From the IMG/VR virus record IMGVR_UViG_2695420564_000016: a stretch of DNA of 4,519 nucleotides; one strand, given 5' to 3'. The notes beneath the pieces were generated by a model. The model had not been told where the DNA came from. It was given only the letters and a program-made list of their open reading frames with translations, and searched no databases. This stretch comes from a virus (taxonomy: Duplodnaviria > Heunggongvirae > Uroviricota > Caudoviricetes). This document shows positions 2,275 through 4,519 of this stretch, in pieces (position 1 is the first letter of the stretch; each line of letters starts with the position of its first letter). A program made the translations under genes and the position numbers.

Positions 2275-2640
2275 TTTGCGTTCCATCAGATTCAGCAGCG
2301 TGGTGCTGATACGCGCACCGGAACACCCTAGCGGATGACCCAGCGCGATCGCACCACCATTGAGGTTGATCTTCTCGTCAATCTGCTCCATTAGCCCCAG
2401 ATCTTTAATGCACGGCAGGATCTGCGCGGCAAAAGCTTCGTTCATCTCGAATACGCCGATATCGCTGGCAGAAAGTCCCGCTTTTTTCAGCGCCAGTTTT
2501 GAGGCCGGAACCGGGCCGTAACCCATAATCGACGGATCACAACCAACGACCGCCATCGAACGCACACGGGCGCGCGGCTGAAGACCTAATTCACGAGCGC
2601 GACTTTCACTCATCACCAGCATGGCAGCTGCCCCATCGCC
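2275..2640 (-). pseudogene. fadA: Internal fragment of a 3-ketoacyl-CoA thiolase gene (fadA-type), about 120 codons, lacking both ends
   Basis: Minus-strand frame encodes [121 protein letters not shown], nearly identical to the C-terminal domain of enterobacterial FadA as I recall it, including the [19 protein letters not shown] thiolase signature. Similarity stops abruptly after MERK (about 2275) and before DGAAA (about 2640). The N-terminal roughly 250 residues and the final roughly 20 residues are absent. Confidence 0.7.
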
Positions 2641-4519
2641 GGAAAAGGCCACTGTGGTTCCGCTCTGCCCCTCTAATTCGACGCAACGAGATTGCGAACA
2701 CAAGCGCACGCGCAGTCCCACTGGCGTCGGGCCGATAAGCTGATAACGCCATGCCACCTGTGTTATTTCCACGCATAGGTACATCTGGAAACGGAATAGG
2801 TGCTCGCATGTGTTGTGATGGTTTTAAAGTACCTTGATATATAACTTTAACTTCATCATCATCACAAAATATTACTTCACTAAGATCATGAGGAAATCGT
2901 CCCCAACCAACTTCAGCACGATTGATATTATTGCTCTCCGCATGATGTATAAGCAGAGCTTTAGCCGTAAGTGGTGTAATGTTGTAATTTAGAGAAGCAC
3001 TTAACGCGATTGCTTGCCTCAGGACTAATGGAGCTGAAAAGCTAGTCCCCGCAGTGCGGGCAAGACCATTAACCATAGGGCTGTATACCTGGAATGGCTC
3101 ATCAGAATGTCCTCCAAATGCAACTCCATCAGGCTTCACAAAGCCAGGGCTTCGTCCAGGACCAATACAACTGTAAGAACATCTTTCCCAACTATCAGAT
3201 AAAGAGGTTGCTGCACCTACTGACAGACCATTAACTAAATCAGCAGGTGGTTGAATTCGATTTAACTTGGCAGGCAGCTGACCATCATTTCCAACCGCGA
3301 CAGTACAAAGTGTTTCTCCTGATGCAAGTATCTCCTCAAGAGTTGAGGTCCACACATGCACGTCATCGTCATCAACAGGTAATCTAGGTCCTAAGCTCAG
3401 ATTGATATAATCATATTTTTTTTGTTCTAATACACTTTTAATACGGATCAGAACGTCAAAAAGATCGACATCTGAGTTATTAACATTGGAATCCAGTACA
3501 CGATAATGGTCAATATTACAATAAGGAACACTTAATTTTTCCGTTTCAGAGCCAAGAACACCAAATAACACAGTAGAGGTGACATCCTGTCCATGAGAAA
3601 GAAGTTTTGCATTAGTACTAGCATTACCGTTGAAAGTGTACTCTGTTACCCAAGGATTGAAATCATCGATCCCCAATCCACCATCGAATATGGCAACCTT
3701 TATGTGTGGGTTTACCGCTCCTTCAGATGGTAAACTAAGGTTAGATGTTTGAATCACAGAACGTGATATAACAGGCTCACTTAGCCTTAATTCAGGAAGT
3801 TCTCTCAAAGTCCTGAGAAATGAAAACTCTGCAACTTTTAAAGCTACATCTTTACTAGCCTTAATAGGCATAAAGGTTAGCCCCTTAACCTTTATACTTC
3901 TTGCCTTATCTATAACAGCACCATTTTGCGAAGCAAAAACTTCAAAACTATCGACAATAGAGGAACTTGTATCAGGAGTATGTAAGGCGACCTCAATACT
4001 CATAACTTCATTGCTATTAATCGTTTTTACTTTATCTGAAACTTCCAGTATTGAAATATTTTCTAAGGTGACAAAATCATTTTGCTGCCCTTTCGTTAGG
4101 GTATCTTGATTTACAGAATCTAAGAATGATTGAAAACTTTCTTTTTTGCCAGAAACATAAATACACGCTGTAGTGTATTCCTCTTTTCGCCCTCTTTTTT
4201 TAATATCTTTTCTAGGTTTTACTTTTACAGCCTTACTGCCTATGCTTTCTAGGGAAAATCGCTCAAAAAGACTTACTGGAAAATAACTTTTTGCTAAGAA
4301 TGCCGGATGCAAAACAAATTTTGCTACAGCCTTACCTTCAGGCATTGCTAACAATGGAAGGGTATTAATTTCCTCAATCAACTCTTCCAGTTGAGCAGAT
4401 ATCACTGGTTTATTTTCTGAATAAGAGTAAGGTTTATTCTTTTCACCTCCACCTCTGTTAAGTTTAACAGGGTTAGTTAGTGTTTCACCATAGCCAAGAA
4501 GCATATTTTTATCATTCAT
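2606..4519 (-). CDS. Subtilisin-like (S8 family) serine peptidase with a roughly 270-residue N-terminal domain of unknown function and no signal peptide; 3' end reads into compositionally distinct DNA
   Basis: ATG at 4519..4517, exactly at the window edge, so the true start may lie upstream. Catalytic tetrad is intact: Asp in VAIFDGG (about residue 279), His in SHGQDVTST (about 309), oxyanion Asn in INLSLG (about 373), Ser in GTSFSAP (about 493). N-terminus [29 protein letters not shown] is not hydrophobic. DNA from about 2820 to 4519 is visibly AT-rich, unlike the rest of the window. The last 65 or so codons (about 2606..2810) lie in GC-richer DNA and overlap the thiolase fragment in another frame. 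Confidence 0.75.

Follow-up and report, generated by a model that had tools for sequence, protein, structure and literature searches.

A truncated copy of the known protease gene ietS beside lambdoid DNA, probably brought together by an assembly artefact

The window analysed here is a stretch of 4,519 nucleotides (nt) from a Caudoviricetes record (IMG/VR IMGVR_UViG_2695420564_000016), in which an open reading frame (ORF) for a subtilase lies near the nutL site and the antitermination gene N of a lambdoid prophage. The sequence comes from assembly GCA_000940615.1, where it is the reverse complement of positions 8449..3931 of the 8,451-bp contig CCBU01000175.1 (locus L003; positions called contig positions below refer to it). 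An initial annotation had read the ORF as one intracellular protease gene with a new N-terminal domain, carried by the prophage for anti-phage defence. In our analysis the locus holds a known gene, that of the S8 protease IetS of the IetAS defence system, in truncated form and with surroundings that probably arose as an artefact of assembly. The features of the protease part of the window are as follows.

4512-4519, minus strand: last 8 nt of ietA, the gene of the IetA AAA+ ATPase, overlapping the start of ietS; the rest lies beyond the window end
2768-4519, minus strand: ietS', codons 1-584 of the IetS protease with the 3' end cut off, from DNA, protein and PADLOC matches
3800-4423, minus strand: IetS residues ~33-240, predicted as a long helix and then two ferredoxin-like (beta-alpha-beta-beta-alpha-beta) modules
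2825-3712, minus strand: S8 catalytic domain of IetS, residues ~270-565 (PF00082; four residues invariant in the alignment)
3683-3685, 3593-3595, 3287-3289 and 3041-3043, minus strand: catalytic codons of D279, H309, N411 and S493, respectively
2606-2767, minus strand: non-IetS tail of 53 codons and a stop, an out-of-frame read-through into flhE and fadA fragments

The ORF runs for 637 codons from ATG to stop (2606-4519, minus strand). Its length, a complete catalytic tetrad, the lack of a signal peptide and a lysine-rich patch had all been described in the initial annotation, and all were found in the sequence by ORF calling, Pfam, motif and Kyte-Doolittle analysis. Residues 289-540 match Pfam Peptidase_S8 (PF00082) with an expectation value (E) of 2.3e-17, and the catalytic residues are D279 (in the motif VAIFDGG), H309 (LSHGQDV), N411 (VGNDG) and S493 (GTSFSAP), each of them invariant in an alignment of 96 homologues. 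No signal-peptide-like hydrophobic core is present in the first 50 residues, where the highest Kyte-Doolittle mean over 10 residues is 1.1; the lysine-rich patch begins at residue 99. The protease part is also AT-rich, as had been said, with a G+C content of 38.5% versus 56.5% in the adjacent mosaic of gene fragments and 44.5% in the lambdoid part.

The family of the protease can be assigned with the PADLOC models. IetS model PDLC02197 covers residues 25-583 of the ORF (E = 1.6e-46), in addition to matches by another five IetS models; the intact relative described below scores E = 1.8e-48 as IetS. Judged by its sequence, the window protease belongs to the IetAS family as its S8 protease, IetS. 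The idea of an intracellular S8 protease from an anti-phage system, for which IetAS had been named as a possible analogue, is therefore borne out by the models, while the statement that about 270 N-terminal residues match no family is contradicted by the extent of the PDLC02197 match. PMC13069673 describes IetAS as a protease toxin, IetS, with an ATPase antitoxin, IetA, that provides protease-dependent phage defence; it traces its discovery as a toxin-antitoxin pair of plasmid pTiC58 to Yamamoto et al. 2009 and its recognition as an anti-phage system to Gao et al. 2020. The system acts by abortive infection, with a Bacillus allele triggered by SPbeta YosG (bioRxiv 10.1101/2022.08.27.505566), and in Escherichia coli it has been noted as prophage-borne (bioRxiv 10.1101/2022.08.21.504612). 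The published resistance and toxicity results concern alleles other than the one in the window.

An ATPase gene had been expected just beyond position 4519, and the source contig contains one. It is an AAA gene at contig positions 3189-3938 (Pfam AAA) that overlaps ietS, at 3931, by 8 nt, and PADLOC identifies it as IetA (E = 2.6e-73) over model positions 111-371 of 374, i.e. as a 5'-truncated gene. The same 8-nt overlap of ietA and ietS is seen in intact E. coli loci, and there the upstream neighbour is likewise IetA (PADLOC E = 6.7e-84; Pfam AAA). Linkage to a partner gene is conserved more widely, as AAA-S8 pairs occur in E. coli, Vibrio, Leptospira and Cupriavidus. In Vibrio, Leptospira kmetyi and Cupriavidus necator (L012-L015), a protein of 357-405 amino acids with an AAA domain is encoded directly upstream of an S8 protein of ~730 amino acids, and these pairs lie among integrases, insertion sequence (IS) elements and toxin genes.

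The extent of ietS in the window can be read from its closest relatives. In a megablast search of 5,426 complete E. coli genomes, window positions 2768-4519 match genes annotated as "S8 family peptidase" that adjoin genes annotated as "AAA family ATPase", with 99.8-99.9% DNA identity. In two of these loci, in P2-like prophages (L001 and L002), the identity is 99.9% and the match ends sharply at 2768. The intact gene there has 2,193 nt and encodes a protein of 730 amino acids, WP_001513122.1, from which residues 1-584 of the window ORF show no difference at all. From residue 585 onward, the ORF and full-length IetS mismatch at every residue examined. The DNA encoding residues 585-637 instead matches flhE and fadA, in a frame that is wrong for both, and ends at a chance stop codon at 2606. 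By these comparisons the 637-codon ORF is a composite of IetS(1-584) and 53 codons of accidental read-through; the reading of it as a single protease gene holds for the first 584 residues and fails for the rest.

Among the 120 homologues listed, out of 1,026 found, full-length IetS proteins have 723-735 amino acids. Of the 730 codons of the gene, the final 146 are missing from the window (441 nt at the 3' end). Eleven positions in residues 585-730 are invariant (T591, G610, E639, W649, E650, F669, R676, Y692, L694, Y707 and L717), and the window ORF therefore lacks a conserved C-terminal domain. The partner gene, whose full-length product has ~360 amino acids, is cut as well: the P2-derived segment begins 297 nt inside ietA, which is thereby without its first 99 codons.

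Compared with IetAS as known, the locus has the IetS hidden Markov model match, the intact Asp-His-Ser triad together with the oxyanion Asn, no signal peptide and an ietA gene that directly precedes ietS on the same strand with an 8-nt overlap, and its residues 1-584 are 100% identical to an IetS-scoring E. coli protein. It differs in that IetS is without residues 585-730 and has a 53-residue foreign tail, and ietA is without its first 99 codons. The pair is incomplete, IetS homology stopping at 584 of 730 and IetA homology starting at model position 111 of 374. In the related ietHAS system, which adds an SNF2-type helicase to IetAS (NAR 2026, PMC13069673), the same two core proteins are present, but the P2-borne allele is accompanied by no helicase gene at L001 or L002. 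For ietHAS, that paper reports that protease activity is needed for defence and that ietA could not be inactivated, which fits an antitoxin role. The gene in the window is already known, the intact protein being in RefSeq and the family in the PADLOC IetS models, so that the initial proposal of a new defence candidate does not stand. A megablast search of the deposited phage genomes in INPHARED with the ietS DNA gave no match, and a sequence search of the PDB with full-length IetS found no solved IetS structure, only a weak match to subtilisin E (E = 0.0025).

At L001 and L002 the ietAS pair has the portal gene on one side and the DinI-like/replication-endonuclease genes on the other, in E. 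coli P2-like prophages. This site is the gpA-gpQ hotspot, where P2 itself carries old and tin and its relatives carry many defence systems (Rousset et al. 2022, PMC9122126). The native home of the allele is therefore the variable slot for cargo that is bounded by gpA (replication) and gpQ (portal) in P2-like prophages of Escherichia and Salmonella. Intact copies of the exact allele occupy that slot in E. coli, whereas the window carries a fragment of the cassette away from any P2 gene, abutting host-gene fragments and lambdoid DNA. In the whole source contig, P2-derived DNA is limited to positions 3152-5682 (2,531 bp), comprising ietA' and ietS'.

Between ietS' and the lambdoid DNA, whose boxB and N gene close the list below, the window contains four short fragments of core genes of Escherichia albertii, all with sharp boundaries.

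2639-2766, minus strand: flhE fragment, 128 bp, gene-internal, ~90.6% identical to E. coli flhE (Pfam FlhE)
2274-2638, minus strand: fadA fragment, ~365 bp, C-terminal part of the thiolase, 96.2% identical to E. coli fadA (Pfam Thiolase_C, E = 5e-40)
2259-2273, no strand: ambiguous selA/fadA junction, with N in the source record at 2262, 2264, 2265 and 2271
2158-2263, minus strand: selA fragment, ~106 bp, 84-88% identical to E. coli selA
1988-2155, plus strand: lapB (yciM) fragment, 168 bp, orientation opposite to its neighbours, 90.5% identical to E. coli lapB
1964-1978, minus strand: P22-type nutL boxB, GCGCTGACAAAGCGC, an exact match with 0 expected by chance
1503-1844, minus strand: gene for the antitermination protein N, from a lambdoid prophage (Pfam N_peptide, E = 8.1e-26; contig positions 6606-6947)

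Overall, the host-gene pieces are 84-97% identical to E. coli. The lapB piece is closer to another species, matching Escherichia albertii NBRC 107761 lapB at 167 of 168 bases with equally sharp ends, and a 29-mer from it matches only that genome among species representatives. Because of this identity and the 29-mer match, the host of the contig is identified as E. albertii. The flhE and fadA fragments are by chance joined in frame, and the resulting ORF of 184 amino acids (2230-2784, minus strand) matches Pfam Thiolase_C (E = 5e-40) as well as FlhE (E = 3.8e-19); a collection of 15 billion proteins does not contain this exact sequence.

The rest of the contig is built in the same way. It contains pieces of gcvP (contig positions 180-365), ybiW (721-834), glpC (832-1230) and ubiI/gcvT-gcvH (1350-3163), and its lambdoid segment is N-kil-Rad52. 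Altogether at least 11 pieces without linkage to one another make up the 8.4-kb contig; they measure 106-2,531 bp, and each is broken off inside a gene. Two of them, gcvP and gcvTH, belong to one chromosomal neighbourhood and are in the wrong order. Upstream of ietA', where the initial annotation had suggested looking for the prophage repressor, the extended contig has gcvH and gcvT instead.

Taken together, the neighbourhood of ietS, nutL and N is most likely the product of a chimeric contig, either from mis-assembly or from concatenated library fragments, and not of biology. The contig has ten Ns in three clusters (contig positions 1232-1238, 3164-3165 and 6179-6188), and every cluster is at the end of a piece. 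By our estimate, ~3-4% of the contig is within about 12 nt of a junction; thus, it is unlikely that all ten Ns would be at piece ends by chance. The four Ns at the selA/fadA junction (window positions 2262, 2264, 2265 and 2271) are N in CCBU01000175.1 and appear as A in the window. None of the 5,426 complete E. coli genomes covers 80% or more of the window, and in none of them is ietS next to this N region. A 41-mer across the flhE/ietS junction has no match in 100,044 GTDB species-representative genomes; the fusion protein is encoded by the 637-codon ORF and is found on 1 contig only in an index of 153 billion genes. No papers naming CCBU01 or GCA_000940615 were found.

Two points weigh against an artefact of assembly. 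The call is circumstantial, and four of the window junctions are blunt, with 0-3 shared bases, which does not fit a simple merge at a false overlap. Blunt junctions are better explained by ligation of fragments, whether in a library or in vivo, than by false-overlap merging. False short overlaps were accordingly rejected as the sole cause: imperfect overlaps of 10-15 nt are present only at the three N-bearing junctions, and these four window junctions are blunt. A common restriction site was also considered and rejected; by eye, TCGA, GCGC, CCGG and CTGCAG are near some of the junctions, with no consistent site.

The strongest competitor to a chimeric contig is a real chromosomal patchwork in an E. 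albertii strain, with chromosomal, P2-like and lambdoid pieces joined without homology in vivo, ietA' and ietS' non-functional and N promoterless. The sharp, blunt junctions with 0-3 nt of microhomology would then resemble end-joining products. All of the pieces could plausibly come from one genome: the lapB piece has 99.4% identity to E. albertii, the same 90% IetS cluster includes a protein of that species, and the contig includes both the gcvP and the gcvTH pieces of one chromosomal neighbourhood. However, such a patchwork would have to combine 11 or more unlinked pieces in 8.4 kb, all of them broken off inside genes; none of the other public sequences searched has a structure of this kind, and the Ns cluster exactly at the piece ends. 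Escherichia is also not known to have a Ku/LigD end-joining pathway. We therefore consider a real patchwork unlikely. If it did exist, which is improbable, it would be a bacterial structure formed when DNA debris was end-joined, as might follow chromosome breakage induced by a phage or a defence system, and ietA' and ietS' would be dead remnants in it. Artefact or real, both ietS' and ietA' are partial genes, and that they lie next to nutL and N is uninformative about lambdoid cargo slots.

Much less survives of the initial reading, in which a functional defence gene with a novel N-terminal domain occupies a lambdoid prophage at a position like that of rexAB. That the ORF is positioned by nutL and N is correct as far as boxB (1964-1978) and N are downstream of it on the same strand, and ietS' is AT-rich relative to its flanks. 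Lambdoid prophages do carry cargo in this slot; an example is a proteinase gene between N and the repressor in a relative of the lambdoid part (L008). But between ietS and nutL there is no repressor, pL or other lambdoid DNA, only the four host-gene fragments, and the truncated ietA is preceded by gcvH. Homology to lambdoid DNA goes no further than 1988, ten bases past boxB; pL is therefore absent, and the N gene has no pL promoter in the contig. The adjacency that would define a lambdoid accessory slot was found in 0 of the 5,426 E. coli genomes. The ORF itself is without the conserved C-terminal domain and ends in read-through, its partner is without 99 codons, and its N-terminal region is the standard one of IetS. 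With this much against it, a lambdoid cargo gene is very improbable.

The locus, then, is a known IetAS gene, truncated, in a context probably created by the assembly. It has no new features, and what is odd about it is best ascribed to the contig, whose joins are not reliable. The window should be treated neither as a new candidate for defence nor as support for an additional cargo slot in lambdoid prophages. The contig also shows that single Ns and sharply bounded gene fragments can be used to flag chimeric draft contigs before anything is inferred from gene context.

The N-terminal region can be described from structure prediction of the intact protein. AlphaFold2 with the 96-sequence alignment gave a model of the 730-residue IetS with a predicted local distance difference test score (pLDDT) of 84.9 and a predicted template-modelling score (pTM) of 0.88, and a separate model of residues 1-262 with a 26-sequence alignment had a pLDDT of 84.7. 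The predicted parts are a conserved peptide (residues 1-31), a long helix (33-53) and two beta-alpha-beta-beta-alpha-beta modules (~63-157 and ~173-240). A Foldseek search with the region returned only a tandem ferredoxin/ACT-like topology with low template-modelling (TM) scores, and neither the window ORF nor the intact protein has a Pfam match to Inhibitor_I9 (PF05922). Residues ~173-240 resemble subtilase prodomains in fold, and the best matches of the whole model are pro-subtilases. With moderate confidence, the second module, next to the catalytic domain, is predicted to sit like a subtilase prodomain; the rating is moderate because Foldseek gives a low-TM topology only and there is no Pfam I9 match.

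The prodomain-like fold and the pro-subtilase matches are what might suggest a subtilase of the usual kind, either secreted or with a housekeeping role, that has a standard I9 pro-peptide and no relation to defence, but the lack of a signal peptide and of an Inhibitor_I9 match, the six matching PADLOC IetS models and the invariant linkage to an AAA+ IetA gene in loci with mobile-element contexts make this the least credible explanation of all. Subtilases that retain their prodomain are known (pro-subtilisin E 3whi, ProN-Tk-SP 3afg, Clostridial CspB/CspC and PCSK9). In contrast to these, IetS has no I9 match at the sequence level; it is a cytoplasmic protein with an AAA+ ATPase as its partner, and its further parts are another ferredoxin-like module, an N-terminal peptide that is conserved and a beta-rich domain at the C terminus.

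For the intact system, the model suggests a likely mechanism. IetS may be a cytoplasmic, self-inhibited, zymogen-like protease, in which the N-terminal ferredoxin-like module would dock on the catalytic domain in the manner of a subtilase prodomain, keeping the enzyme latent. IetA, as an AAA+ antitoxin-like controller, would keep or reset the latent state. A phage-encoded trigger would break this control and free the protease, and proteolysis by the freed IetS would then kill or arrest the infected cell, aborting the infection. A zymogen-like IetS with a retained prodomain-like module would give a concrete hypothesis for what IetA controls. As a speculation, the N-terminal peptide 1-31 could be a handle for the IetA ATPase. 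In this peptide, G9, G11, K27, P30 and Y31 are invariant. The stretch (window positions 4427-4519, minus strand; ...K.HPY) is among the most conserved of the family, and is poorly ordered, with a pLDDT of 44-60, when modelled without the rest of the protein.

The lambdoid part of the window has some features of its own. The N protein has a P22-like arginine-rich motif (GNAKTRRHERRRKLAIERD). Among E. coli lambdoid relatives the closest is L008, from E. coli 30EVA2. Window positions 1234-1616, which include an ORF of 83 amino acids (1243-1494, minus strand), match nothing in it, while the flanks on either side match at 96-97%; this segment is a variable slot in the early-left operon. In the same relative, a natural prophage, a gene annotated as "SDH family Clp fold serine proteinase" lies between N and the S24-family repressor (L008 positions 6299-7300). 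Here a rexAB-like position is truly occupied by protease cargo, which is unrelated to IetS.

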